This document shows positions 3,877 to 20,497 of a stretch of 32,000 nucleotides of DNA, in pieces. Source of the DNA: an uncultured Mycoplasmatota bacterium (lineage in GTDB: Bacteria; Bacillota_I; Bacilli_A; RF39; UBA660); the NCBI GenBank assembly GCA_900547225.1, contig URFW01000002.1, positions 140,392 through 172,391 of the forward strand, read 5' to 3'. Positions within the stretch are counted from its first letter, which is position 1; each line of letters opens with the position of its first letter. A program made the position numbers and the translations under genes. Under the pieces are notes generated by a model that saw only the letters and a program-made list of their open reading frames with translations, was not told the DNA's origin and made no database searches.

Positions 3877-4677
3877 TTGAAGGGGATGAAAAGAATGATG
3901 GAGTTAAATAATTTATTAAAATCATTAGATATTGATAAAGATTATCACGACAAAATTTTTGGCAATATGATATTTGAAAATTTATATACAAAAGTAGATT
4001 TAAATAAGTATGCTGCTATAAAAAATAAAATTTATTGGATGAGCTTATTGATATATAGAATATCTATGACAAACTATTTAAAATCGATTAACAAGAATAT
4101 TAATTTTGAAAATAAATTTATTAATATCGAAAAAAACAATCTAATGGTTTTTCATTTATCGCTAAACATTACAAGTGAAATTTGTAAACAATTTAGTAAT
4201 GGTGAAATATATCCATCATATATTTCAATGTTATGTAGGCAAATAATAGAACAAATATGTTTTATTAAAGAAGTTAAAAATGAAAATATAAATTTACAAC
4301 TTATAGTAGAATCTGCTTTAGAATCGTATAATAAACAATTAGGAGCAAAAAGCTTAAATATACAAGAATTGAATGATAATAATAAAGGATTACTGAAAGT
4401 TTTTAAAGGTAAAAAATCATATGGAAAACTTGCAAAAAAATATAAATATGGGTATATGTATAATTTCTTTTCTGGAGATATTCATTTATTATCACAAATT
4501 GATAAATTAATACCATTTAATACCAATCATTCAACGCAGTATTATGATATATATTTTAATTGTATTTTAACTTTGTTAAAGGATTATTTCTTGCTCATAA
4601 ATGATTATAATACTGAAGTAAAAGTAGATGTGACAAAATTAAATCAAATTAATTTTATGGAAATAAAAGATAGTTAA
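3877..4677 (+). CDS. hypothetical protein (islet cargo A); helical, distantly related to cargo B
   Basis: The ORF opens at TTG 3877. The likelier start is ATG 3895 or 3898, 8-11 nt after GAAGGGGA. No recognised catalytic motif. It shares a G-x5-Y-x-S-x(1,2)-R-x-I/A-I-E segment and a His segment ~80 aa downstream with the 407-aa ORF. Confidence 0.6.
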   Translation: MKGMKRMMELNNLLKSLDIDKDYHDKIFGNMIFENLYTKVDLNKYAAIKNKIYWMSLLIYRISMTNYLKSINKNINFENKFINIEKNNLMVFHLSLNITSEICKQFSNGEIYPSYISMLCRQIIEQICFIKEVKNENINLQLIVESALESYNKQLGAKSLNIQELNDNNKGLLKVFKGKKSYGKLAKKYKYGYMYNFFSGDIHLLSQIDKLIPFNTNHSTQYYDIYFNCILTLLKDYFLLINDYNTEVKVDVTKLNQINFMEIKDS

Positions 4678-4712
4678 TTAGATGGATTAATCAACTATCT
4701 TTTATTTTTTAT
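4665..4712 (+). terminator. rho-independent terminator after cargo A
   Basis: AAAAGATAGTT (4665-4675) pairs with AACTATCTTTT (4693-4703), followed by ATTTTTTATT. Confidence 0.5.
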
Positions 4713-4751
4713 TAGATTGAATTGAAATAATAGTGATTAAAGAAAGGATAA

Positions 4752-5998
4752 GTGACAATAATGATCAATATTAGAAAAAGGGGTAAAGTGTATCAATATT
4801 GCTTTGAAGCAGGGAAGGTAAATGGAAAAAGAAAACAAATAACTAAATCAGGTTTTAAAACTAAAAATGAGGCATATATAGCTGGACAAAAAGCATACGA
4901 TGAATTTATAAATGGAATAACTAATGTAGAGTGTAATATGTTATATGGAGATTATTTAGACTATTGGATGAAAGAATATTTTGAAATAAACTATAAATAT
5001 TCTACTGCAAGGAGATATAAAGAATCTTTTAGGAATATTAAAAAGGAATTAGGTAATTATAAGTTATCAATTTTAACACCATATATTCTAAATCAAGCGC
5101 TATTAAAGTTATATCAAACATCTGGCACAAGGAACGCATTAAGAAATTATCAAAAGGTTATTAAAAGTTCGTTGAGGGATGCAACTTACTATTTTGGATT
5201 TATTAAGAATAATCCGGCTGGTGATTTGGAGATACCTAGAGTATTATCATTTGAACTAAAAAAAACAATATAGGTCACATCTATACTGAAGAAGAAATAG
5301 AAATAATTTTGGGCAGATTTAAGAATAACAAAGTTTTTGTATGTGCATTTTTAACTGCTTGCTATACGGGAATGAGAACTGGTGAAGTATTTGCTTTAAC
5401 TTGGGATGATATTGATTTAGAAAATAGAATAATAAAAATTAATAAGACCGTTTACGCAAAAGATAAAGAAGAAAATGGCAGATGGTATTTAGGTACAACA
5501 AAAACAATAGGCAGTAGTAGAGAAGTTTATATTTGTGATACTCTATATTCAGTATTATCTGATTATAAAAATCTACAAGTTAAATATAAAAAAGAATATG
5601 GCAAAAAGTATAAAAGATATACCTTAAAAGAAATAAAAAATAAATATGGTAAGTTAATAGAATATAAAGTTATAGAAAGTCAATCTAGAAATAATAAAAT
5701 TCAAATGGTATTTACTAGGAAAGATGGAACTTATTCAGGAACAGATATTATTAGATATCCATTTAGAATAATTCATTATGAATTAGGAATTCAATGTAGA
5801 TTTTACGATTTAAGAGGAAGTTTTGCTACTATAAGTTTAAGAGGCGGGTGTGAAATAAAAGATATTGCAGAGGTGTTAGGGCATAAAAGAATAGAAACTA
5901 CCGAAAAATATTATATTTCAAGTACAAGTGAAGATAAGAAAACGGTTTCAAAAATATTAGAACAAAATCTCAAAAACTATAGTAATCTTAAAATGTAG
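4752..5998 (+). pseudogene. int: tyrosine recombinase (phage-type integrase) split by a frameshift at an A8 tract
   Basis: The N-terminal ORF (4752-5273) has an arm-binding AP2-like domain (RKRGKVYQY...GKRKQITKSGFKTKNEAY) and a SAM-like core-binding domain. The C-terminal ORF (frame open from 5255, ends 5998) has the catalytic domain (TGMRTGEVFALTWDDID, YDLRGSFAT, LGHKRIETTEKYY with the Tyr nucleophile). The frames meet at A8 (5258-5265), and one extra A would fuse them. Confidence 0.85.
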
Positions 5999-6037
5999 AT
6001 AAATTGTTATTTTTATGAAATGATGATATAATTTTAT

Positions 6038-7261
6038 ATGAAAAATTTACTTTGGAGAAGAAATATGAGTGATAATTTTAAATATAGTGAATGGAGAAAA
6101 AATGAAAATATAAAACGATATGAAATTCCTAATGTTGAAAACTATTTTGAAGATTTAATGAATATTGAACATTCATTTTCAGGAAGAATGGATATACCAT
6201 TAGCAAACACTTTTATAATGGAAGCGGTTCAATTAGTTGTTAATTCTATTTCTCTTTTTGAATTAGGTTATTTTGATAATGCTTACTATTCCTTAAGGGA
6301 AGCTATTGAAATATCAACAACAATAGTTTATTTATCAGATATGCCAGATGAAGAAAGACGAGAAAAAATGGAAGATTGGAAAAATACTAAAGATTTTCCA
6401 ATGCAAGGACAAATGTTAAATCAGTTATATCAATATGGGATAGTAATATCCGATATGAAAGAGAAAATGGAATCATTTTTTGATGAAATAAAAAATGTTA
6501 GCAAAAAGATAAATAAATGTATTCATAAACAGGGGTTAAGATTCTTTTATGTTAGCAGAAATCATCCAATAAATATAAAAAAGGATGATAAAGTATTTAT
6601 TGAAAATTATGTTGACTTTTTGGAAAAAACTATTGGAATAATTGCAGTTATGAGATTGGCAATAGATCCATATCCTGTATTATTAATGGATGAAGAAATA
6701 TTATTAAGATGTTTTGATTCGATGACAGAAGCATATAAAAATGAATTTGTAGAAAAATATATTACAAATGAAACATTAAAAGATTATAAAAAAACAGAAA
6801 TGTACATAAATCACTATAATGGACATATTACCGAAGAAAAAAAGAATTATGCTGTTTTTGATATAATGAAACATCAAGTTATAGATACAACAAAAATAAA
6901 AGAGATATTATCGCAAATCCATTTATTAGATAATACGGATAAAATAGCAACATATATAGCATTGATTTCTAAAAAGGTTGTAAAGATATATACTTATGGT
7001 GGTCTTCAAATGTATTTTACTGATAGAAAAACAAACAGAAAGGCACTTTCATGGGATGGTATGGAATTTAAACAATTTGAAGAAAGTAATGAAAAATTTA
7101 ATCAAAATTATGATGAAGTTTTTATATCAGTATTCACTTATAATATAGGAGATAATAAACAAGAATCTTTTTTTGTCGAACATAATGAGTGTTTAAACGA
7201 TTATGACATTAATTTGATAAAAGAATTGTCTGTAGATAAAATTATGGAAGACCAGGGTTGA
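6038..7261 (+). CDS. hypothetical protein (islet cargo B); helical N-terminal domain of DUF5677-like appearance
   Basis: The likelier start is ATG 6065, after GGAGAAG. LFELGYFDNAYYSLREAIEISTTIVYLSDMPDEERREKMEDW resembles, from memory and unverified, the G-x4-A-x3-R-x3-E-x6-YL...P-x-E pattern of DUF5677/Abi-associated helical domains. Confidence 0.6.
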   Translation: MKNLLWRRNMSDNFKYSEWRKNENIKRYEIPNVENYFEDLMNIEHSFSGRMDIPLANTFIMEAVQLVVNSISLFELGYFDNAYYSLREAIEISTTIVYLSDMPDEERREKMEDWKNTKDFPMQGQMLNQLYQYGIVISDMKEKMESFFDEIKNVSKKINKCIHKQGLRFFYVSRNHPINIKKDDKVFIENYVDFLEKTIGIIAVMRLAIDPYPVLLMDEEILLRCFDSMTEAYKNEFVEKYITNETLKDYKKTEMYINHYNGHITEEKKNYAVFDIMKHQVIDTTKIKEILSQIHLLDNTDKIATYIALISKKVVKIYTYGGLQMYFTDRKTNRKALSWDGMEFKQFEESNEKFNQNYDEVFISVFTYNIGDNKQESFFVEHNECLNDYDINLIKELSVDKIMEDQG

Positions 7262-7303
7262 CACTAAATAATATATTTTATATAATTGTAGCAAGTGAAC
7301 GGA

Positions 7304-7320
7304 TGTGGACACTGTCCACA
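7304..7320. repeat. perfect 17-bp palindrome TGTGGACA-C-TGTCCACA in the right arm of the islet
   Basis: Read directly. A third TGTGGACA copy lies in the left arm at 3815-3822. Confidence 0.8.
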
Positions 7321-7350
7321 ATATGTACACGTTAGAGAAATACTTATAGT

Positions 7351-7444
7351 ACAGGTAATATCATAAATACAAATAATATAGATGTTACCTAGTCTGGAAA
7401 AGCCTGAAATACAGGTAATATTATAAATACAAATAATACAGATA
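7351..7444 (+). repeat. two ~33-bp direct repeats spaced 60 bp apart (candidate integrase arm-type sites or iterons)
   Basis: 7351-7383 ACAGGTAATATCATAAATACAAATAATATAGAT and 7411-7443 ACAGGTAATATTATAAATACAAATAATACAGAT differ at 2 of 33 positions. Confidence 0.75.
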
Positions 7445-7464
7445 ATATGGGAGTACAAAGTTCA

Positions 7465-7506
7465 TGTGGCTCAGGAAAAAAATACAAACAATGCTGTGGA
7501 AAGTAG
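7465..7506 (+). repeat. displaced secA 3' fragment (attR-side copy of the SecA zinc-finger tail)
   Basis: In frame it reads CGSGKKYKQCCGK-stop. The upstream in-frame codons (..SS) lack the first Cys, and no ORF or RBS precedes it. Confidence 0.7.
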
Positions 7507-7507
7507 G

Positions 7508-7545
7508 CTCGCAAAGCCTTATAAATAAATGGCTTGCGAGTTTTT
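7508..7545 (+). terminator. rho-independent terminator, probably the native secA terminator
   Basis: CTCGCAAAGCC (7508-7518) pairs with GGCTTGCGAG (7531-7540) with one bulged A, followed by TTTTT (7541-7545). Confidence 0.75.
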
Positions 7546-7690
7546 CTATGATTACAATATTTAGGTAATTTTAGGAATGTCTTTTGTCTTAGATAAGTTG
7601 TTGAATAAAAACTTGCAATGTTTCAATAAAAAATTCTCTAAAAATTAATATTTATTACTATCTGATGCAATAAGAGGCTAAGATTTATTC

Positions 7691-7718
7691 TTAGTCTTTT
7701 TATAATTTATGATATAAT
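7691..7718 (+). promoter_or_regulatory. candidate promoter of the WYL regulator gene with extended -10
   Basis: TGaTATAAT: TG at 7710-7711 and TATAAT at 7713-7718. Weak -35 TTAGTC at 7691-7696. An inverted repeat CTAAGA/TCTTAG (about 7678-7695) overlaps the -35 and could be an operator. Confidence 0.35.
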
Positions 7719-7734
7719 GAATGTAGGTGATTTT

Positions 7735-8337
7735 ATGTCTAAAGTATCTAATGTTATAACAATGCTAGAATTGTTACAAAACGGAAAAAAATATAGTATT
7801 AATGAACTTTCTAAAGAGCTTGAAGTATCAGAAAGGATGATTAGAGTTTATAAAGAAGATTTAGAAAAAGCAGGAATTTATGTAGATACAATTATGGGAC
7901 CATATGGAGGATATGTATTAAATCAGCAGATTCGTATGCCAATTAGAAAATTTAAATTAAAAGATACAAAATTATTAGATAAATATATATTAAAAGAAAA
8001 AGATAAGAAGATAAAAGAAGAATTAATTATGCTTCAAGATAAAATAAAAGGAGTTTATATAGGGAGCAAACAAGAAGAAAAAGAGTTAAATTTAAAAGAA
8101 GAAACTGGAAAAAAATACAATTTGTTAACAAGAGCCATAAAAGAAAAAAGAAAAGTTAAATTATTGTATTATTCTTATGGTAAGGGTGAAAATCAAAGAA
8201 TTATATATCCTGCTGAAATGTTTTTGTTTCAAAATGGTTGGTACTGTGCAGCATTTTGTGAAATGAGACAAGATATTAGACATTTTGAATTGAAAAGAAT
8301 AATAAATTGTGAATTATTAGATGAAAAATATGAGTAG
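7735..8337 (+). CDS. HTH plus WYL domain transcriptional regulator (YafY/BrxR/CapW-like architecture)
   Basis: N-terminal winged HTH (ITMLELLQNGKKYSINELSKELEVSERMIRVYKEDLEKAG). C-terminal WYL domain (KVKLLYYSYGKGENQRIIYPAEMFLFQNGWYCAAFCEMRQDIRHFELKRI). The track ORF starts at 7717, but that ATG overlaps the -10 box. ATG 7735 follows AGGTGA. Confidence 0.8.
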   Translation: MSKVSNVITMLELLQNGKKYSINELSKELEVSERMIRVYKEDLEKAGIYVDTIMGPYGGYVLNQQIRMPIRKFKLKDTKLLDKYILKEKDKKIKEELIMLQDKIKGVYIGSKQEEKELNLKEETGKKYNLLTRAIKEKRKVKLLYYSYGKGENQRIIYPAEMFLFQNGWYCAAFCEMRQDIRHFELKRIINCELLDEKYE

Positions 8338-8349
8338 ACGAAATATTGC

Positions 8350-8381
8350 CTCCTTTTAAGTTATAGTTAACTTAAAAGGAG
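8350..8381 (+). promoter_or_regulatory. perfect 14-bp hairpin whose 3' arm contains the RBS of the downstream gene
   Basis: CTCCTTTTAAGTTA (8350-8363), loop TAGT, TAACTTAAAAGGAG (8368-8381). The AAAGGAG SD of the ATG at 8389 lies inside the 3' arm. No U-tract follows. Confidence 0.7.
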
Positions 8382-8388
8382 AATTATT

Positions 8389-9663
8389 ATGGAAAATAAA
8401 AAATTTATAAAACTGATATTAAATGATGAATATATTAATTGGATTAATATTTTTATTGAACAATATGGGGAATTTGACGATTGCTATTTTCTGCACAACG
8501 GTAGAGAATTTTTAAGCGAAAAAGACCTTATTTTTATTGGTTATATATCAACTTTGTTTGATCAAATTAATAAATATGGATTTAAAAATGGGATTACATT
8601 TAAAAATACATTTTGTTATTTGCTAAAATACAATGAAAAATTTTATGAAATTTTTGATAACGGAGATTGTTACTGTTGTAAAATTGGTGAAAAAGATGAT
8701 AATGTGCCAGTAATAGACTATAATCAATTCAAAAAATATTATCAAAAAAATATGCAAGTTAATTTTGATATTTTAAAAGAAAGAGTTATTGATTCATTAG
8801 AATCTACTGATTTGAAATTTATTAGAAAAGAATTATCTAAATTAAGTGGTCCAACATTATTTAGTGGTGTTGGAGGCTCAAGTGTGGTTAGTGAATTTGG
8901 AGCAAAGGTTATTAATGCTAAAAACGGTATAGTTTCAATAAATAGTGAGCCAAGAGACTTCTTATATCAAAATAATAAAGCATTTAAAAATGTTATATCA
9001 TGTAGTTACAGCGGAAATAATTACGGAGTTGAATTATCTTTTGAAAATCAGTTAAAAAAATATCTATTATCCAACAACTCTTTTAATGATAGTGATGTAA
9101 CTTATTTAAAATATAATACTAATATTCCAAAAGAAAATAGTTTTATTTCTGTTGGTGCTACATTAATTCCGGTAAGCATATTGATGGACTATTATTTAAA
9201 TGGACAAAAAAATTTGATATTAGATTGTATAGAAGAATCATCATTTGAATTTGATTTAGAAAGTGATATATACGAAATATTTAGTGGTTACGATACAAGT
9301 GTGGCATCAAAATATTTAGAATCAACTATGGTTGAATCCGGAATTGGAATACCAATAGTTCATGATAAATATTCTTATTGTCACGGTAGGAGTACACTTG
9401 CTATTAATTATAATAATGTAGCTATTTATTATAATAGAAATACTGAATTTGACAGAATCATGCTAGAAGAATTGAAAAAATATTATAGTAGAATTATCAC
9501 TATTGATTCCAAATTTGAAGACCAAATATTAGATGATTATCAAATGCTTGTGCAAAGTATGTATCTAACAAAGTATATTTCTTATAAAAAAGAAAAAGAT
9601 TTATCCAAAGTAGAATATTCACCAATAACAAAAAAATTGTATAAATATAATGGTCAAATTTAA
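8389..9663 (+). CDS. hypothetical protein: unknown Cys-containing N-terminal domain plus a SIS-like (sugar-isomerase-fold) ligand-binding region
   Basis: 424 aa. LFSGVGGSSVVSEFGAKV..., VISCSYSGNNYGVE and SFISVGATLIPVSIL match the G-x-G-x-S / S-x-SG-x-T / helical layout of SIS domains. A second degenerate half (IFSGYDTSVASKYLE...YCHGRS) follows. The N-terminal ~140 aa is unrecognised. Confidence 0.6.
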   Translation: MENKKFIKLILNDEYINWINIFIEQYGEFDDCYFLHNGREFLSEKDLIFIGYISTLFDQINKYGFKNGITFKNTFCYLLKYNEKFYEIFDNGDCYCCKIGEKDDNVPVIDYNQFKKYYQKNMQVNFDILKERVIDSLESTDLKFIRKELSKLSGPTLFSGVGGSSVVSEFGAKVINAKNGIVSINSEPRDFLYQNNKAFKNVISCSYSGNNYGVELSFENQLKKYLLSNNSFNDSDVTYLKYNTNIPKENSFISVGATLIPVSILMDYYLNGQKNLILDCIEESSFEFDLESDIYEIFSGYDTSVASKYLESTMVESGIGIPIVHDKYSYCHGRSTLAINYNNVAIYYNRNTEFDRIMLEELKKYYSRIITIDSKFEDQILDDYQMLVQSMYLTKYISYKKEKDLSKVEYSPITKKLYKYNGQI

Positions 9664-9868: not shown

Positions 9869-10985
9869 ATGGAGATTACAAATAAAGATATAGAAATATT
9901 AAATAGAAAGTTTAATCAAATATGGAGGTCTCTTTGAGGTAGAAGAAAAACAAAAAGAGATAAAAAAACTAAATGAAAAATTATCAGAACCAAATATTTG
10001 GGATGATAGTAAGAATGCAGAAAAACTAACTAAAAAAATGAGTGAATTAAATGAGATTATTAATCCTATTATTAAGTTGAAAGAAAATATAGATACTTTA
10101 AATCAGTTTAAAGAGTTTGATGAAAATACCTTAGATTCTGCTTTAAAAAAAGAATTTGAAAAATTATATGAAAATTCTACTATAGAGTTAGAAAAGCAAG
10201 AAACTCTTACATATTTATCTGGAAAATTTGATAATAATGCCGCCATTTTTGAAATACACGCCGGGGCAGGTGGTACGGAAAGTTGTGATTGGGCAATGAT
10301 GCTTTCTAGAATGTACACAAAATATTTTGATAAAAAAAATTATTCATATGAAGTAATAGATGAGCAAGAAGGCGAAGAGGCCGGAATAAAAAGTATTGTG
10401 TACATTGTAAAAGGAGCATATGCTTACGGGTATTTAAAAAACGAAAAAGGGGTTCATAGGCTAGTTAGATTATCTCCGTTCGACTCAAATAACAGGCGTC
10501 ATACTTCTTTTGCAGCAGTTGATGTTATACCAGAATTTGACGACGATATAGATATAGAAATAAAAGATTCCGACGTTAGAATAGACGTATATAGAAGTAG
10601 TGGGGCCGGGGGACAAGGAGTAAATACAACTGATTCTGCTGTTAGGGTAACTCATATACCAACTGGAATAGTAGTTACTTGTCAAAACGAACGAAGTCAG
10701 ATAAAAAATAAAGAAACAGCACTTAAAGTTTTAAAAAGTAAGCTTTATCAAATAGAACTAAAAATGAGAAAAGAAAAAATAGATTCTATGAAAAGTGACC
10801 ATAGTGGAATAGAATTTGGATCACAAATAAGAAGTTATGTACTTCATCCATACTCAATGATAAAAGACCATAGAACAGGTTATGAAACATCTAATGTTAA
10901 TAAAGTTTTAGATGGTAATTTAGACGGATTTATAGAAAGTAATTTAAAAGGAGAAAAAATAAATGAGACTAATAAGAAAAATTAG
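9869..10985 (+). CDS. prfB: peptide chain release factor 2, requiring a programmed +1 frameshift at codon 23
   Basis: Frame 0 reads MEITNKDIEILNRKFNQIWRSL, then TGA (9935-9937). The +1 frame continues EVEEKQKEIKKL... into the 315-aa track ORF, which has SPF (RLSPFDS) and GGQ (GAGGQGVNTTDSAVR) motifs. Confidence 0.95.
9924..9937 (+). promoter_or_regulatory. RF2 autoregulatory +1 frameshift site
   Basis: Internal SD-like GGAGG (9924-9928), 3 nt, then CTT TGA (9932-9937). This is the canonical SD-CUU-UGA arrangement. Confidence 0.9.
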
Positions 10986-14707: not shown

Positions 14708-14716
14708 AAAAGTCTA

Positions 14717-14748
14717 AAAAAGTCAAGTTTTTAAACTTGACTTTTTTA
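14717..14748 (+). terminator. rho-independent terminator ending the ftsEX-M23 operon
   Basis: AAGTCAAGTTT (14720-14730) pairs with AAACTTGACTT (14733-14743), followed by TTTT. Confidence 0.8.
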
Positions 14749-14769
14749 ATGTTTACGTCAAGAAAAATA

Positions 14770-14798: not shown

Positions 14799-14892
14799 TT
14801 TATAGTAGGATAGCCGGGTCTAAGTAGTTTAGTGGTTATCTAAAAGAAGCATTAAATGTCTTCAATATTTCATACAAAAGGAGGTGAATAAC

Positions 14893-15423
14893 GTGAATCA
14901 AAAGAAAAAGAAAGGATTAATAGCTTTAGTAATACTACTTGTAGTAGCTATTGGTGTTGGTTTTGCAGCATCACAAGACGCAGTAAATATTACTGGTACT
15001 GCAAGCGCTGTTGCAACAGATTTTGATATTCAGTTTAAAACAGATGCTACTATAACAACCGAAAAGAGCGCTGGTGCTACAATAGTTGCTTCAGGTGCTT
15101 ATGGTACTGATGGAAATGCTGATGCTACAATGACTGTTTCTGGATTAAAGAACGCTAATGATTATGCAGAAGCAACTTATACTATCATAAACAAAAGTAC
15201 TGATGTAAACGCTGACATTACAGCAAAAGTATCATCTGCTATTGAAGATGCAGATCATTATAATGTTGAAGTAACAGGTGGTGCAAATGGTGTTGCTCCA
15301 GGTGCAACAACTACTGTAACAGTTAAAGTTACACTAAAAAAAGCTTTTGCTGATGATACAGCTGCACAGGCACCAAAATCATTCAAAATTACAGCAACTG
15401 GTGTAGCAGCTGAAGAAAAATAA
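14893..15423 (+). CDS. small secreted Ala/Thr/Gly/Val-rich protein (candidate fibre or surface-layer subunit) with a cluster-specific leader motif
   Basis: The track ORF starts at GTG 14884. GTG 14893 lies 8 nt after AGGAGG. It has a Lys-rich n-region, a hydrophobic h-region, then GFAASQDAVNITGTASAVA. The mature part has low complexity and looks beta-rich. It sits next to a SipW-type peptidase gene. Confidence 0.75.
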   Translation: MNQKKKKGLIALVILLVVAIGVGFAASQDAVNITGTASAVATDFDIQFKTDATITTEKSAGATIVASGAYGTDGNADATMTVSGLKNANDYAEATYTIINKSTDVNADITAKVSSAIEDADHYNVEVTGGANGVAPGATTTVTVKVTLKKAFADDTAAQAPKSFKITATGVAAEEK

Positions 15424-15458: not shown

Positions 15459-16584
15459 ATGGCTAAAAGAAGAGATTCGGCTTATATATACTTTGCATTT
15501 GTAATAGTATTTCTTCTCCTTAATCTTCTTGTGCTAAATATTAGTGCAAAATTACAATTGTTACCCATATTTATAATTATATTTTTGTTAAGTTTTATCT
15601 TCTTTAAATTTAGAAAAGACAAAACTTATGCAAGAATTCAGGTAACTATTACAATGTTACTTATAGGAATTGTGCAAATAGTTTTATATCTTTTAACCGG
15701 CTTTTTAGAGGGCTTTTCTAAGAATGCTATTAGTATGAGTTTTAACCGTTTTTTAACCGTTATTTTACCTATTATATTAATATTAGTAGTTATTGAATTG
15801 TTAAGATATATGATATCAGTAAAATTCGAAAAAAACAATTTAATAAGAATACTTAGTATTACTATGTTTGTACTATTTGATGTGACTTTATTTGGCTCAA
15901 ACGTGAATTTTAATAGTTTGGATTCTGTATTAGAATTTTTAGGAATAACGTTTTTTCCTAGTCTGGTAAGTAATATTGTGTTTGATGATATGGTAGTTAA
16001 ATATGGATATAAACCAATACTTGTTTATAGATTATTAACAACGTTATGTTATTACATGTTGCCTATCGTTCCTAATATGTATATTTTATTTAGGGCAATT
16101 GCAAGAATTGTGATTCCGCTTATTTTTTACTTCATATTATCTTATATGTATGATAGGGTAACGTTTCAAGAAGCATTAAAGGTAAAGCCTAAAATAAGTA
16201 TTTCATCAATAATTATACTTATATTAGTAATTATTATGGCAGGTTTAATATCTTGCGAATTTAGATATGGTATTTTAACAATTGGAAGTGGTTCTATGAC
16301 TGGAACTTTAAACAAAGGAGATATTGCTTTTTTTCGAAAAATTTAATGGTCAGGAGTTAGAAATAGGTGACATTATTATATTTAAACGAGGCAAAAGAAA
16401 TATAGTCCATAGAATCACACAAGTTGGCTTATTCAATGATGAATACGTTTATATAACAAAAGGAGATAAAAATAAAGTAGAAGATAATGGGTATGTTTAT
16501 CAAAAGGATATTCAAGGGATAGTTCACTATAGGATAAAATATATCGGATACCCATCTATATGGATAAGAAATTTATTTAATTAA
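15459..16584 (+). pseudogene. polytopic membrane domain fused to an ER/archaeal-type (SipW-like) signal peptidase I, split by a frameshift at a T7 tract
   Basis: ORF 15459-16346 has ~9 TM helices and ends ...GSGSMTGTLNKGDIAFF (catalytic Ser box). ORF 16324-16584 continues FFEKFNGQELEIGDIIIFKRGKRNIVHRIT...ITKGDKNKVEDNG (His box and KGDxN box). The frames meet at T7 (16328-16334), and deleting one T fuses them. AAGGAGGAGG RBS at the 5' end. Confidence 0.8.
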
Positions 16585-16615: not shown

Positions 16616-17710
16616 ATGGACAGAAAACAAATAAGCAAAGTTATGCAAGAAACAAAAAAAAGAACAAGAACTATTGCTATTTTGATATTTGTTGTAATAG
16701 CTGTTTTACTTGCAGCTATAAGCATAATTTTTATCTCTATAAATAGTGAGAAGAATTACTACATTCATTATGATGAAAAAAGTGATTTAGATTATAAGGT
16801 ATATTTAAAAGAAAATGATTATTTTGGAAGATATCTAGGTAAAAACAATCAATATATTGCAAGCCTAATTGATTATGTGGAGGCAGATTTTAATTACAAA
16901 TTATCAATCGATGAGAAAATTGATTATTCATATTATTATTACGTAGAAGCAACTGTTCAGGTTTTAGATACTAATGATAAACCATTATATAAAAAGGTTG
17001 ATAAAGTAGTTGAAAAACAATATTTCAAGGATCCTGTTAATCATGCTTTTGAAATAGATCAAACTGTTAATTTGGATTATAATTACTATAACAATATAGT
17101 AAATACGTTTATTAAGAGATATAACTTATCAAATGTTAAAAGTAATGTCACTTTAAGTATGTATGTTGGAATTGAAGGGGAATGTAAAGAATTTGATTCT
17201 TCTTTAGCAGACAACGCAGTTATTAGTATGAACGTCCCATTAACAACAAACACTGTTAATATTGACATGAATTATAAATTAAATAATTCTACAAACAAGT
17301 TATTAAAATGTAGAGAAGAATCAGTATTAAATAATAAATTACTTATTTTAGGCATAGTTTTATTATTCATTGATTTAGGTGTTTTGGTAGGAACTATTAG
17401 ATATTCAAAAAGAACTAGAAGCACTTTAACTATATATAATAAAAAACTAAAAAATATTTTTAATAATTATGGTCAATATATATCTAAGATTAAAACGGAG
17501 TTAAAATATGAAAAATTCCAAATTGTATTAGTTGAAGAGTTTGAGGATTTATTTGAGGTAAGAAATTCAAGTAATTCACCTATATTATTTTGCCAGGATG
17601 AAACAAAAACAAGAAGTGCCTTTGTTGTTCCAACAAATTCTGGACTAGTGTACATCTATTATTATTCAATTAGTAATGTAATTGAGCAAGGATGCAAACA
17701 TGAAAGTTAA
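16616..17710 (+). CDS. bitopic membrane protein (TM, ~210-aa extracytoplasmic domain, TM, ~100-aa cytoplasmic tail); possibly DUF5305-like
   Basis: 364 aa. TM1 is IAILIFVVIAVLLAAISIIFISI and TM2 is LLILGIVLLFIDLGVLVGTI. AAAGGAGG RBS. From memory and unverified, proteins of this layout (DUF5305) accompany SipW-type peptidases. Confidence 0.6.
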   Translation: MDRKQISKVMQETKKRTRTIAILIFVVIAVLLAAISIIFISINSEKNYYIHYDEKSDLDYKVYLKENDYFGRYLGKNNQYIASLIDYVEADFNYKLSIDEKIDYSYYYYVEATVQVLDTNDKPLYKKVDKVVEKQYFKDPVNHAFEIDQTVNLDYNYYNNIVNTFIKRYNLSNVKSNVTLSMYVGIEGECKEFDSSLADNAVISMNVPLTTNTVNIDMNYKLNNSTNKLLKCREESVLNNKLLILGIVLLFIDLGVLVGTIRYSKRTRSTLTIYNKKLKNIFNNYGQYISKIKTELKYEKFQIVLVEEFEDLFEVRNSSNSPILFCQDETKTRSAFVVPTNSGLVYIYYYSISNVIEQGCKHES

Positions 17711-20063
17711 AGATAAATTTTTAAAGGCACGAAAAAAATATAGTGATAGTAAGAAGTGGGCAATTTTTCTTATATTAACTATATTTTTATTGAATATAGG
17801 TTATGCAGCTTCAAAGGCCTCGCTTGAAATAAAGGGTAGTGCGAGTGCTGTAAAAATACCAGAATTATTTATCGAAGAAGTAAAAATAATTGACATAAAC
17901 GGATGTTCACAAAATGAACTTCCCATAACAAATGGAACTACTTTGGATACTAATATAAATTTTCCTTCTAATGAATATTCATATATAACATATCAGGTAA
18001 CTATTGCAAATGGTACGGATTCTATTCAAAAGTATACAGGAGAAACTTATAATAGCGATACATCAACTAAAAATGTTATTAATTATGAACTTACGGATGG
18101 TCTTTCTTCCGGTGAGTATTTGTTCCCTGGGGATAGTACAACATATACGTTAACTTATAAGTATAGAAACGGTGCAAGTACAGGTAATTATGATTTGAAA
18201 ATGAACTTTAATTTTGAAGATTCCGGTAAGTTTTCCGCACTTTCATATACAAATAGTGTTGATTTAACTAATAAAACTAAAGAAGCCGTAAAAATTAAGG
18301 TAATGAATAATGGAGATTCTGCAATCAATTATAATCTCAACATAGATAATACTAAATTTGAACTAACTGATATTAATGGAAATTCTTTAAGTTCTCTTTC
18401 TATAAAAGCTCATACTGAAGAAGAAATAACTGTTTATTTATCCAAAAAGTCAGATGTTACATATTACAAAACAGAATATGAAACAAACTTTAGTTTAAGT
18501 TATAATGATATTACATTAGATTTTGGAAAAATAAAAATAAAAACAAATACAACAAGTGGCTATGTTGATACAACACCTCCTCAAATAGGGACAGTATCAG
18601 TTGATATCGTATATGAAGTTGGATCAATTGATGTTACTTGGTCTAATTTAGATAATAAAAATGAGTCTCCAGTAACTAATTATGTTGTTTTACTTTATAA
18701 TGATTCGGGAACTCTTGTTACAACCGGAAACACTGGTAATTCAGATACCACCTATAGATTTAAAAATCAAGCACAAGGAAATTATTATGCTGTAGTTTAT
18801 GGTATAGACGAAGCTGAAAATTCAGGAGAAACTTATGTTTCATCTTCTTCAACATCAACAACCAATGCAAGAAAATCTGTTACAAAAGAAATGAGATGGA
18901 AAAGAACAATAACATATAATGTTACAAATATTAGTGTTGCAGGACCTAATGAGGCTAATTTGGGTGAGTCATTTACAGCTACTTTAAAACCGGATAATAA
19001 CTATAAATATAATTCTGTTCCTTCAGTTACGTCAGATGGTAAAACTTTTAAAGATTATTCAACGAATGCTGATAAATATACTATAACAATAAATCAAGTG
19101 ACAGGTGATCTAGTTATTACTGCAACAGCAGCAAGAACTGCTTGCCTTGCTAAAGGAACAAAAATATTACTTGCAAATGGCAAATATAAGAACATAGAAA
19201 ATATTAGATATGATGATTTACTAATGGTATATAATCATGAAAATGGTACATTTACTCCTGAATATCCTATTTGGATTGAAAAAGGTAATTTGTCTAGTAA
19301 TTATCAAGTAATAACATTTAGTGATGGTACTTCTTTAACAACGATCGATAAACATTCTTTATTTAGTATTGATGACAATAGATATGTTGATGTAACAGAT
19401 GAAAATACATTTCACGTTGGAACTAACATACTAAAAACAGTAAAATCTAAGAGAGGTTACAAGCTCAAAAGTGTTTCTGTAACTAATATAGAAAAGGTAA
19501 ATAAATCGATTGATTATTATAACGTTGTATCAACAAAATACTATGATATAATTGCAAACGATGTATTAACATCAGATGGAAGAACAGGACTAGTTAATTT
19601 TTATGAGTTTAAGGAAAATGCTGTTTGGTCTTCAAGAAGACAAGAAGTTATAAAGAATAATACATTCTTAAACTATGAAGATTATAAATTTATTCCGTAT
19701 TACTTGTTCCATGGCTTAAGAGCACAAGATGGAGCGGTTATAATTAAGTATAATTATATGACTAAAGAAGAATTTGAATCTGTGTTTACCGATTTATTAT
19801 TAAATAAAGAAATGGTATTAGATCCAATAACTAAAAACAAAAAAAGATATTGGATGGTAACAACATCAGATGATAAAGTAACAAGTAAAAATAAAGAAAA
19901 ATATTTACTGAAAGAAAATAGTTATTATACGTTAGAAAAACCTAAGAAAACGAAAAATTTCAAAGGTTGGTATAATACTGGCGATGGGAAGATTTATAAA
20001 CCGGGTAGTAAGGTAAAGATATATCATGGTACACATTTTGTTGCATCATATAATAAAAATTAG
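17700..20063 (+). CDS. large secreted multidomain protein: cluster leader motif, Ig/CARDB-like beta domains, FN3-like domain, Hint (bacterial intein-like) domain, unknown C-terminal region ending in a Listeria-Bacteroides-type repeat
   Basis: The track ORF starts at TTG 17682. ATG 17700 follows AAGGA. Leader: GYAASKASLEIKGSASAVK. FN3-like: PPQIGTVSVDIVYEVGSIDVTWSNL...YYAVVYGIDEAENSG. Hint block A: CLAKGTKILLANG (Cys codon 19143-19145). Hint C-terminal block: YYNVVSTKYYDIIANDVLTS. C-terminal FKGWYNTGDGKIYKPGSKVKIYHGTHFVASY. Confidence 0.85.
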   Translation: MKVKDKFLKARKKYSDSKKWAIFLILTIFLLNIGYAASKASLEIKGSASAVKIPELFIEEVKIIDINGCSQNELPITNGTTLDTNINFPSNEYSYITYQVTIANGTDSIQKYTGETYNSDTSTKNVINYELTDGLSSGEYLFPGDSTTYTLTYKYRNGASTGNYDLKMNFNFEDSGKFSALSYTNSVDLTNKTKEAVKIKVMNNGDSAINYNLNIDNTKFELTDINGNSLSSLSIKAHTEEEITVYLSKKSDVTYYKTEYETNFSLSYNDITLDFGKIKIKTNTTSGYVDTTPPQIGTVSVDIVYEVGSIDVTWSNLDNKNESPVTNYVVLLYNDSGTLVTTGNTGNSDTTYRFKNQAQGNYYAVVYGIDEAENSGETYVSSSSTSTTNARKSVTKEMRWKRTITYNVTNISVAGPNEANLGESFTATLKPDNNYKYNSVPSVTSDGKTFKDYSTNADKYTITINQVTGDLVITATAARTACLAKGTKILLANGKYKNIENIRYDDLLMVYNHENGTFTPEYPIWIEKGNLSSNYQVITFSDGTSLTTIDKHSLFSIDDNRYVDVTDENTFHVGTNILKTVKSKRGYKLKSVSVTNIEKVNKSIDYYNVVSTKYYDIIANDVLTSDGRTGLVNFYEFKENAVWSSRRQEVIKNNTFLNYEDYKFIPYYLFHGLRAQDGAVIIKYNYMTKEEFESVFTDLLLNKEMVLDPITKNKKRYWMVTTSDDKVTSKNKEKYLLKENSYYTLEKPKKTKNFKGWYNTGDGKIYKPGSKVKIYHGTHFVASYNKN

Positions 20064-20110: not shown

Positions 20111-20497
20111 TTATTCTTTAATTATATATTTTATTACTTCTTCTACGCTTTTCTTTGTTCCATTAGTATTGTAATATATTAAAACAGTATCAATAGCAAG
20201 TTTTAGCATATTAAAATATATTATAAGTTCGCGTCCTTTAGCAGTATCTTTGTATTCATTAATATATTTTTCAAACATCTTTTTATCTTCATTTGAAAGT
20301 GGCTCTATTTCAAAATTATATTTCTTTTCTTTTTTTGCAAATCTATAAAATATCCCATTATAATACTCATCTATAAATGATAAATCACTAATTTTTACTA
20401 TATCAGGTGTTATTCTACTATTTATATTTTTTACTAGCTTTAAATCAGCTTCATATCTTTTTTCAAACAAAAATTTTAGTCTTTTATTCTCGTTCAT
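20111..20497 (-). CDS. hypothetical cytoplasmic protein, 128 aa
   Basis: AAAGGAGA RBS 7 nt upstream of the ATG. No TM segment or signal peptide and no recognised motif. One of only two supported full-length minus-strand genes in the window (the other is the XRE regulator at 22640-22960). Confidence 0.6.
   Translation of the reverse strand: MNENKRLKFLFEKRYEADLKLVKNINSRITPDIVKISDLSFIDEYYNGIFYRFAKKEKKYNFEIEPLSNEDKKMFEKYINEYKDTAKGRELIIYFNMLKLAIDTVLIYYNTNGTKKSVEEVIKYIIKE

Follow-up and report, generated by a model that had tools for sequence, protein, structure and literature searches.

The window analyzed here, a 32,000-nt stretch of contig URFW01000002.1 (GCA_900547225.1) from an uncultured human-gut Mycoplasmatota bacterium, carries the gene for a large secreted protein which, as judged from sequence and structural model alike, contains a genuine HINT-superfamily (Hint) domain at residues 488–632, directly followed by a C-terminal tail of about 160 residues. 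All coordinates are window positions, and residues are numbered throughout on the 793-residue open reading frame (ORF) that opens at TTG 17682. Conservation among relatives argues that the N-terminal nucleophile machinery of the domain is under strict selection, and that Hint and tail together form a portable cassette, carried at the C-terminus by extracellular proteins of the fibre and adhesin kinds. The best explanation of the gene context is that the protein is a large accessory subunit, tip or anchor, of a TasA/AbpX-type donor-strand fibre made by a low-GC gut bacterium of the class Bacilli. We propose that the Hint domain would activate the junction at its own N-terminus and that the tail would direct the transfer of the upstream fibre module to a specific acceptor, a reading to which, taken whole, we assign a probability of roughly 45%. 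The original prediction, made from the letters alone, of a Hint autoprocessing domain within a secreted protein was largely right in its main reading; the peptides it quoted were found where it had placed them, with the Cys codon at 19143–19145 and the stop codon ending at 20063.

Hint domains are known to act in protein splicing (inteins), toxin release (PT-HINT), cholesterol attachment (Hedgehog) and ubiquitin-like conjugation (ciliates). The family described here is a well-defined, unannotated bacterial Hint subfamily, locked to a private tail and appended to pilus, fibre and adhesin proteins in gut Bacilli that are abundant and uncultured. Neither the obligate pairing of Hint and tail nor its occurrence on donor-strand fibre, pilin and adhesin proteins seems to have been described before. 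Public sources give the protein no name or call it 'hypothetical', no annotation of or publication on the family was found, and no account connecting pili, donor-strand fibres, sortase, SipW or DUF5305 with a Hint or intein-like domain turned up in the literature searched.

Evidence for the Hint fold

An AlphaFold2 (AF2) model of the large protein, computed from the family alignment, has a mean predicted local distance difference test (pLDDT) score of 86.6, with values of ~85–95 over residues 488–632, a region that is all-beta. Foldseek searches of the PDB match these residues to the bacterial intein-like (BIL) domain BIL2 of the Tetrahymena BUBL1 locus (6tmm/6y75; E ~5e-8, template modelling score 0.78–0.80), with which they superpose at a root-mean-square deviation of 3.2–3.4 Å over ~150 columns, and also to the archaeal intein 6rpq (E 6e-8). 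Moreover, a Hint-only profile of 16 members, searched against 177,635 PDB sequences, matches the BIL2 chains end to end (E 4e-6). It is the agreement of the AF2 model, the Foldseek matches and the BIL2 profile match that identifies the domain as a Hint.

The single-sequence matches in Pfam and NCBIfam, all below cutoff and anchored on Cys488, are to Hom_end_hint (E 2e-5), to PF01079, the Hedgehog-type Hint (E 2e-4; 144 of 146 residues covered), and to intein_Nterm (E 8e-4). PF01079 is the best full-length Pfam match (nine of the 16 members), PF07591 (PT-HINT) matches one member only (E 0.003), and Hint_2 (PF13403, the B-type BIL model) matches five, at a best E of only 0.13; the AXH-type, non-catalytic relatives of the Hint fold are met as weak matches. 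The original prediction had named profile searches as a possible refuting test of the Hint fold; the single-sequence matches are sub-threshold, and the family profile reaches BIL2.

A homology search returned 28 full-length relatives of 30–99% identity, none of them annotated, and a scan of one genome per species found relatives in at least 114 species, almost all uncultured gut or rumen Bacilli. The genomes are labelled 'Tenericutes', 'Mycoplasma sp.' or Ca. Aphodocola, and for some bins the label is evidently wrong. A cluster 99% identical to the window protein comprises 362 member sequences.

Catalytic residues and the Hint junctions

Conservation was counted over 199 unique Hint modules from >100 species, and correspondence with Hedgehog was taken from 78 pairwise alignments of low identity to the 1AT0 sequence, adopted after hhalign of the Hint profile against that single sequence came out of register (probability 11%). 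Cys488 and His558 are each present in 199/199 modules. Cys488 aligns with Cys1 of BIL2 and with C1 of Hedgehog (75/78 pairwise alignments), and His558 with the block-B His of BIL2 and with Hedgehog H72 (54/78). Glu533 is found in 187/199 modules (94%) and Thr630 in 192/199 (96%), and the residue preceding Cys488 is small throughout the family (G/S/T/A/V). The invariance of Cys488 and His558 across modules this diverse indicates selection for catalysis, and we regard it as likely that the domain is catalytically active at residues 487/488. The block-B-like Thr/His pair proposed originally holds for its His; the Thr (554) is present in only 113/199 modules (~57%), and the spacing is TxxxH rather than TxxH.

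At the end of the domain, the alignment to BIL2 sets A-N-D-L-L-T-T-D against A-N-G-V-L-A-H-N143. T/S631 thus occupies the position of the penultimate His and D632 that of the terminal Asn, so that the +1 residue is G633. The alignment bears out the claim that the His-Asn pair and the +1 Cys/Ser/Thr of canonical inteins are absent, and corrects it in one respect, in that the +1 residue is this Gly and not an Asp. With T/S631, D632 and G633 in place of those residues, canonical splicing is not expected. Across the 199 modules, position 632 is D in 162, E in 18, N in 4 and Ser or Val in 9, with one further residue type untabulated; position 633 is Gly in 105, the others having P, A, D or R.

The tail and its pairing with the Hint domain

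Residues 633–793 fold confidently both in the full model and alone (pLDDT 87), as five short helices (about 650–706) followed by a beta domain (716–790). The helical subdomain has six near-invariant residues, N639, F643, W649, P672, Y674 and R680, the first three of which lie at the Hint–tail junction. It has no match in Pfam, in NCBIfam or in fold searches, and no relatives outside the Hint+tail family among 1.84 billion cluster representatives, from which the tail profile retrieved only 253 proteins. Three of these (P0151, P0164 and P0169) match tail-profile positions 110–156 only, 9–10 times each, and the two that were scanned, P0151 and P0164, prove to be genuine Flg_new repeat proteins (Pfam E 1e-125 and 1e-87). 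Thus, on this indirect evidence, the last ~75 residues of the tail are one Listeria-Bacteroides-type repeat, as the original prediction had it from the window sequence. In that sequence itself Pfam detects no Flg_new repeat (one of 18 tails gives a marginal match), and Foldseek with the tail-only model returns nothing significant, the best match being the InlB B-repeat (E 0.74), followed by other beta-grasp folds. Mean pairwise identity is 54% for the Hint, 47% for the Flg_new part of the tail, 35% for its helical part and 32% for the N-terminal module.

The full tail directly abuts this Hint, at or within ~30 residues of the C-terminus, at all of the 80 loci carrying relatives that were fetched, and in all complete representatives; matches to the tail only are short gene fragments. 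That the tail partners the Hint in every complete protein, together with the standing of PF01079 among the Pfam matches, strengthens the Hedgehog-like N-domain/Hint/C-tail architecture first proposed, in which the Hint does lie between an all-beta surface module, of ~440 residues, and a tail.

The carriers themselves are unrelated, and include SipW-type fibre proteins, type IV pilin-like and TasA-like proteins, a probable lipoprotein and DUF285/leucine-rich repeat (LRR) adhesins. Most have an N-terminus of the window type, a transmembrane (TM) helix followed by (I/V)G(Y/F)A. A type IV pilin N-terminus, K-G-F-T-L-(I/V)-E-L-L, is found, for example, in L071, L074 and L037 and in the representatives P0042, P0057, P0064, P0088 and P0140; among the remaining carriers are proteins with a TasA-type 'AYFTD' N-terminus, with an ordinary Sec signal, with a lipobox, or with giant arrays of DUF285/LRR and Flg_new repeats. 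This variety of carriers suggests that Hint and tail behave as a C-terminal sorting or processing module.

Several observations on individual carriers may be recorded here. The pilin-type N-terminus (KKGFTLIELLAVIVIL...) is fused to Hint and tail at L071 (7296–8969), L074 (7536–8894), L037 (ORF at ~7647, a 781-residue stop-to-stop segment) and L073, and at these loci neither the fibre genes nor obvious pilus machinery is adjacent. In L065, an ORF of 579 residues from 7395 joins the N-terminal part of a DUF5305 protein directly to Hint and tail; its junction peptide, ESKSTS|CFVEGTKI, is identical to that of L026, and the fusion is probably a deletion or an assembly chimera. A subgroup of ~1050–1120 residues (P0016, P0018–P0020, P0024 and P0027; L051, L053, L057, L058 and L062) has a ~280-residue insertion of internally repeated domains directly after the signal peptide. 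About 20–25 additional residues follow the tail in the modules of L051, L057, L058 and L062 and in the representatives P0031 and P0114. A word-indexed homology search with the Hint profile yielded mostly fragments, and little on the tails of neighbouring Hint subfamilies.

The fibre locus

A multi-TM signal peptidase I and a DUF5305 protein are hallmarks of TasA-superfamily donor-strand fibres, namely haloarchaeal tafi (PMC11821415, PMC12337348) and AbpX (bioRxiv 10.64898/2026.01.04.697558). In these systems large 'tip' proteins co-assemble with the major subunit, and DUF5305 has been proposed to be an accessory subunit of the signal peptidase (PMC11821415, PMC12337348, bioRxiv 10.64898/2026.01.04.697558); bacterial AbpX loci, moreover, have 'anchor' proteins with S-layer homology (SLH) domains or LPXTG motifs as accessory fibre subunits (bioRxiv 10.64898/2026.01.04.697558). 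Neither Hint nor intein is mentioned in the tafi and AbpX papers (PMC11821415, PMC12337348, bioRxiv 10.64898/2026.01.04.697558).

The window holds a set of this kind (Table 1). Its four genes, for a small candidate major subunit, the signal peptidase, the DUF5305 protein and the large protein, are conserved in ~64–66 of the 80 loci, where they are co-linear or have the Hint gene divergent and where the flanking genes vary; in the window the Hint gene is the last of the four. In 43 loci the gene for the small subunit precedes the Hint gene by ~2.8 kb. The small subunit resembles the large protein over 29 residues (BLASTP E 1e-5), comprising the end of the signal peptide and the first ~15 mature residues. 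Its own profile finds AbpX as the top two PDB matches, weakly (E 0.02 and 0.034) and out of register, and one member of its family matches Peptidase_M73 (E 0.003). In the large protein, the shared segment ASKASLEIKGSASAV is a candidate donor strand by analogy with the TasA/AbpX literature, and residues 45–56 have pLDDT <50 in the AF2 monomer model. The surface module that follows matches Ig/FN3 arrays and WxLIP in Foldseek, with weak Pfam matches to Ig_J and Fn3.

The protein has 793 residues from TTG 17682, or 787 from ATG 17700; the latter is the likely start because an AAGGA ribosome-binding site precedes it by 7 nt and because homologues are called at 787 residues.

Table 1. Features of the fibre locus and of the large Hint-bearing protein (window positions)
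Feature	Position	Strand	Remarks
Palindromic terminator-like hairpin	14714..14749		After pcsB-like gene; upstream edge of the fibre gene set
Small candidate major fibre subunit	14884..15423	+	179 residues; shares signal-peptide end and mature N-terminus with the large protein
Dedicated signal peptidase I	15459..16584	+	Polytopic membrane domain and archaeal/SipW-type catalytic domain; TIGR02228 E 3e-14
DUF5305 protein	16616..17710	+	PF17231 E 7e-15; present in 66/80 loci
Large fibre-accessory protein (putative) with Hint and tail	17700..20063	+	Likely ATG start; ORF opens at TTG 17682
Signal-peptide hydrophobic region WAIFLILTIFLLNIGYA	17757..17807	+	Predicted signal peptidase I site after G40-Y41-A42, from the -3/-1 rule
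Candidate N-terminal donor strand ASKASLEIKGSASAV	17808..17852	+	Common to the small subunit; disordered in the monomer model
All-beta Ig/FN3-like surface module, residues 58–484	17853..19133	+	AF2 model, Foldseek, weak Pfam
Short linker R-T-A	19134..19142	+	Predicted scissile bond Ala487-Cys488
Hint domain, residues 488–632	19143..19577	+	
Cys488	19143..19145	+	Nucleophile, Hint position 1
Glu533	19278..19280	+	Hint position 46, spacing as Hedgehog Asp46
His558	19353..19355	+	Block-B histidine
T630-S631-D632	19569..19577	+	In place of intein x-His-Asn; D632 at the Asn-equivalent position
Tail part 1, family-specific helical subdomain, residues 633–712	19578..19817	+	
Tail part 2, residues 713–793	19818..20060	+	One beta-grasp repeat of Flg_new (Listeria-Bacteroides / InlB B-repeat) type

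The membrane domain of the signal peptidase, of ~290 residues, is fused to the TIGR02228 catalytic part, and in most relatives the gene is a single ORF. In the window it is split into two by a 1-nt insertion in a T7 run at 16328–16334 (GCTTTTTTTCGAA), while in the near-identical loci L001 (GCTTTTGTCGAA) and L002 (GCTTTTTTTGAA) it stays in frame; that of L004 also appears split. The split in the window could be an assembly error, phase variation or a genuine inactivation (pseudogene).

Downstream of the Hint gene, no gene is conserved at the 80 loci. A reverse ORF of 128 residues (20111–20497, minus strand) converges on it in the window and has no family match; it is conserved only in the two closest loci, L001 and L002 (2/80), and does not belong to the fibre gene set. 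Identity of 97.4% to L001, a contig of a metagenome-assembled genome of the same species, spans ~14472 to ~20342, that is, the fibre genes and the short reverse ORF only. The genes that flank the set (ftsEX/pcsB, uvrB) lie elsewhere in L001 or are inverted there, which puts the fibre genes between rearrangement breakpoints.

Proposed mechanism and alternatives

Cleavage, transfer and the nature of the nucleophile we infer from the established chemistry of Hint domains. After export, the dedicated multi-TM signal peptidase I, together with DUF5305, would cut after GYA and expose an N-terminal strand like that of the small subunit. Once the protein is folded outside the cell, Cys488 would attack the carbonyl of Ala487 in an N-to-S acyl shift assisted by His558, forming a thioester at the junction. 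A nucleophile would then resolve this thioester and free the Ig-like fibre module (residues ~43–487) from a Hint+tail fragment of ~35 kDa, with no canonical splicing. We favour a role for the tail like that of the sterol- or adduct-recognition region of Hedgehog, in which it would present a specific nucleophile, possibly with Glu533 as general base. The new C-terminus of the fibre module would be esterified or amidated to an envelope or target molecule, as a self-contained counterpart of LPXTG/sortase anchoring.

The alternative that survives best, which we consider possible if somewhat doubtful, is a plain autoproteolytic maturation. Water would hydrolyse the thioester and leave the fibre module with a free C-terminus, and the tail would serve transiently before cleavage (to hold the protein at the surface, as a chaperone or to block premature assembly) and then be discarded. 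The catalytic evidence fits this equally well, and hydrolytic N-terminal cleavage is the default side reaction of Hint/BIL domains (PMC7765530). Conservation in the helical half of the tail does not exceed that of the N-terminal module, the Flg_new repeat also occurs upstream, as an ordinary stalk repeat, in some carriers, and one relative has a short tail only (see below). Plain hydrolysis, however, leaves unexplained the strict coupling of Hint and 160-residue tail across five or more kinds of carrier, the near-invariance of N639, F643 and W649 at the Hint–tail junction, and an acidic residue, near-invariantly Glu, at domain position 46 with the spacing of Hedgehog Asp46. It is for these reasons that we favour directed transfer, as well as because PF01079 is the best full-length Pfam match (nine of 16 members, vs one of 16 for PT-HINT) and because BIL2 conjugates its N-terminal domain to lysines without ATP (PMC8616854).

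Several points weigh against directed transfer, or against parts of the scheme on which it builds. No Hint-clan model of Pfam or NCBIfam reaches its curated cutoff, in the single-sequence scan or with the 16 members, the best scores of the window sequence being 25 vs 32.1 bits for Hom_end_hint and 22.4 vs 29.7 bits for PF01079. Glu533 aligns with Hedgehog D46 (D303) in 46 of the 78 low-identity pairwise alignments, which is moderate support, and hhalign is uninformative. The tail has no recognisable ligand-binding relative in the fold search, and could serve some other purpose, such as retention, folding or timing. P0029, a metagenomic protein of 519 residues with FN3-like repeats and a close relative of the Hint (E 6e-36), has only an unrelated acidic tail of 37 residues, with Leu at the Glu533-equivalent position and an adjoining Asp; the Hint subfamily is thus slightly wider than the cassette and need not be accompanied by the tail. 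A donor strand, pilin helix or lipid already holds most carriers at their N-terminus, and C-terminal anchoring to the producing cell is not obviously needed; if anything, this tethering suggests an external or fibre-distal acceptor rather than the wall of the producer. In L037, the pilin-type Hint protein is preceded by two LPXTG proteins and a probable sortase, so that the cassette is not simply a substitute for sortase in organisms that lack it, an idea we considered and rejected on this ground. Lastly, the frameshift in the signal peptidase gene means that the locus of this window may be non-functional.

An improbable alternative, which the original prediction did not consider, is a double processing of the BIL type, in which Asp632 would cyclise and cut the Hint–tail bond in addition to the N-terminal reaction, either freeing the tail as a separate extracellular protein or, via its new alpha-amine, ligating the fibre module to it. 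D632 does align with Asn143 at the end of BIL2, and of the 199 modules 184 have D, E or N at position 632 and 105 have Gly at +1; inteins ending in Asp and BIL domains without a +1 nucleophile reportedly process. On the other hand, the penultimate His that aids cyclisation is replaced by Thr/Ser, nine modules have Ser or Val at 632, Pro, Asp or Arg is common at +1, and no 'spliced-type' allele, with carrier joined directly to tail, occurs among the representatives.

We think it decidedly unlikely that the Hint is non-catalytic, its fold kept as a structural or binding module after loss of processing. The sub-threshold Pfam scores, the variable block-B Thr and the weak AXH-type matches would agree with such a loss, but the absolute conservation of Cys1 and the block-B His in 199 modules, and a small residue at -1, would be hard to explain. 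Least probable, and rejected here, is the other option raised by the original prediction, a polymorphic-toxin-like release in which the Hint, as a pre-toxin HINT, would free a 160-residue effector against competitors: a secreted protein with Hint and C-terminal domain does resemble PT-HINT systems, and one of 16 members weakly matches that model, but the tail is one conserved family (35–47% identity, vs 32% for the N-terminal module) with no toxin or enzyme match in Pfam, NCBIfam or fold searches, the loci share no immunity-like gene downstream (only 2/80 have the neighbouring reverse ORF), and release would need a cut at the Hint C-terminus, where His-Asn is missing.

Returning to directed transfer, we put forward tentatively, as a doubtful further step, that the cassette is a prokaryotic 'Hog' ligation device, whose tail delivers a specific, non-water nucleophile to the Hint thioester; an envelope lipid or glycolipid, a peptidoglycan precursor, a gut-derived sterol, or a host or partner amine would be candidates. 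If so, fibre tips, pilins and adhesins would be coupled covalently by their C-terminus without sortase or ATP, and the cassette would extend Hedgehog-style adduct transfer beyond eukaryotes for the first time and offer a plausible model of the ancestry of the Hog domain. More generally, should the tail steer the thioester towards a specific acceptor, bacteria would have in the cassette a new, enzyme-free means of fixing surface structures to envelope or target; it would also be a bacterial counterpart of Hedgehog autoprocessing and a compact candidate tool for site-specific C-terminal labelling. In the event of self-cleaving maturation only, the Hint protein would still be a new component of the recently recognised TasA/AbpX/Tafi fibre systems.

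Comparison with known systems

On the available comparisons, the domain fails the defining features of inteins, of A-type BIL and PT-HINT domains and, by score, of Hog, and would work most like Hog. As in Hedgehog (PF01079), a secreted N-terminal module is followed by Cys, Hint and a C-terminal region outside the fold, neither system has a terminal Asn or a +1 nucleophile, and C1 and a His at 71/72 share their spacing, as does, with moderate support from the alignments, an acid at position 46. The Hog architecture, a Hint abutting a C-terminal region at the end of a secreted protein, is matched at the level of architecture only, since the tail resembles no known region: it has 160 residues and is unrelated in sequence to the ~70-residue sterol-recognition region (SRR) of Hedgehog. 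Unlike Hedgehog, moreover, the family is bacterial, its PF01079 score is below cutoff, its -1 residue is not fixed as Gly and its block-B Thr is not conserved.

The closest solved structure, and the closest sequence, is BIL2 of BUBL (6tmm, 6y75), which transfers its N-terminal domain onto substrate lysines without ATP (PMC8616854). In contrast to the window Hint, BIL2 retains a His-Asn terminus and is flanked, in a eukaryotic protein, by ubiquitin-like domains. The conserved His-Asn that defines A-type BILs is missing here. With B-type BILs (Hint_2) the motif pattern is compatible, the N-terminal motifs being present and the C-terminal motif absent, but the sequence matches are no better than E 0.13. 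The family has the Hint fold in common with canonical mini-inteins, as well as Cys1, a block-B His and a block-F-like YYN(I/V)IAN motif. It differs from them in lacking the His-Asn pair, the +1 Cys/Ser/Thr and a homing endonuclease; its carriers, moreover, are not conserved host proteins into which it has been inserted, and an intein-free allele with the two flanks joined is not found. A mobile intein was rejected as an explanation on the last three grounds, that is, endonuclease, conserved insertion site and intein-free allele. With PT-HINT (PF07591) the family shares the position of the Hint near the C-terminus of a secreted bacterial protein; the domain downstream is, in contrast, conserved and not polymorphic, with neither toxin match nor immunity gene, and a single member in 16 matches the model.

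LPXTG motifs and sortase are a functional analogue only. In both cases surface, pilus and fibre proteins of several kinds carry a C-terminal element, and a nucleophile takes over (here, as proposed) the thioester formed at the new C-terminus; LPXTG anchor proteins have the accessory-subunit role in the related AbpX fibre loci. In contrast to sortase, to which there is no homology, the Hint would form the thioester in cis, once per molecule, and at least one lineage has both the cassette and sortase substrates. As to the TasA/AbpX/Tafi loci, the multi-TM signal peptidase I, the DUF5305 protein and the small candidate major subunit are alike, as is the N-terminal strand common to small subunit and large accessory protein, here at sequence level only; no described locus, however, has a Hint-bearing subunit, and the relation of the small subunit to AbpX is weak (E 0.02).

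Other features of the window and of related loci

Paralogous signal peptidase I-DUF5305 cassettes, with a longer DUF5305, adjoin the Hint locus in L012 (11322–17584), L015 (11341–15809) and L057 (1592–6536 and 9981–12248). They are followed by proteins of ~520–580 residues without Hint, several of which end in ...G-x-G...PY-x-I..., and suggest that there are several fibre systems per genome.

Between secA and prfB, the window has an insert (3877–9663) with a phage-type integrase split into two ORFs (4752–5273 and 5309–5998), a WYL/helix-turn-helix regulator and three ORFs of 266, 407 and 424 residues without Pfam match; it is probably a decayed integrated element. The prfB ORF (10038–10985) begins at position 32 of the PCRF profile, the short first ORF not being listed, which is consistent with the usual programmed +1 frameshift of release factor 2 (RF2).

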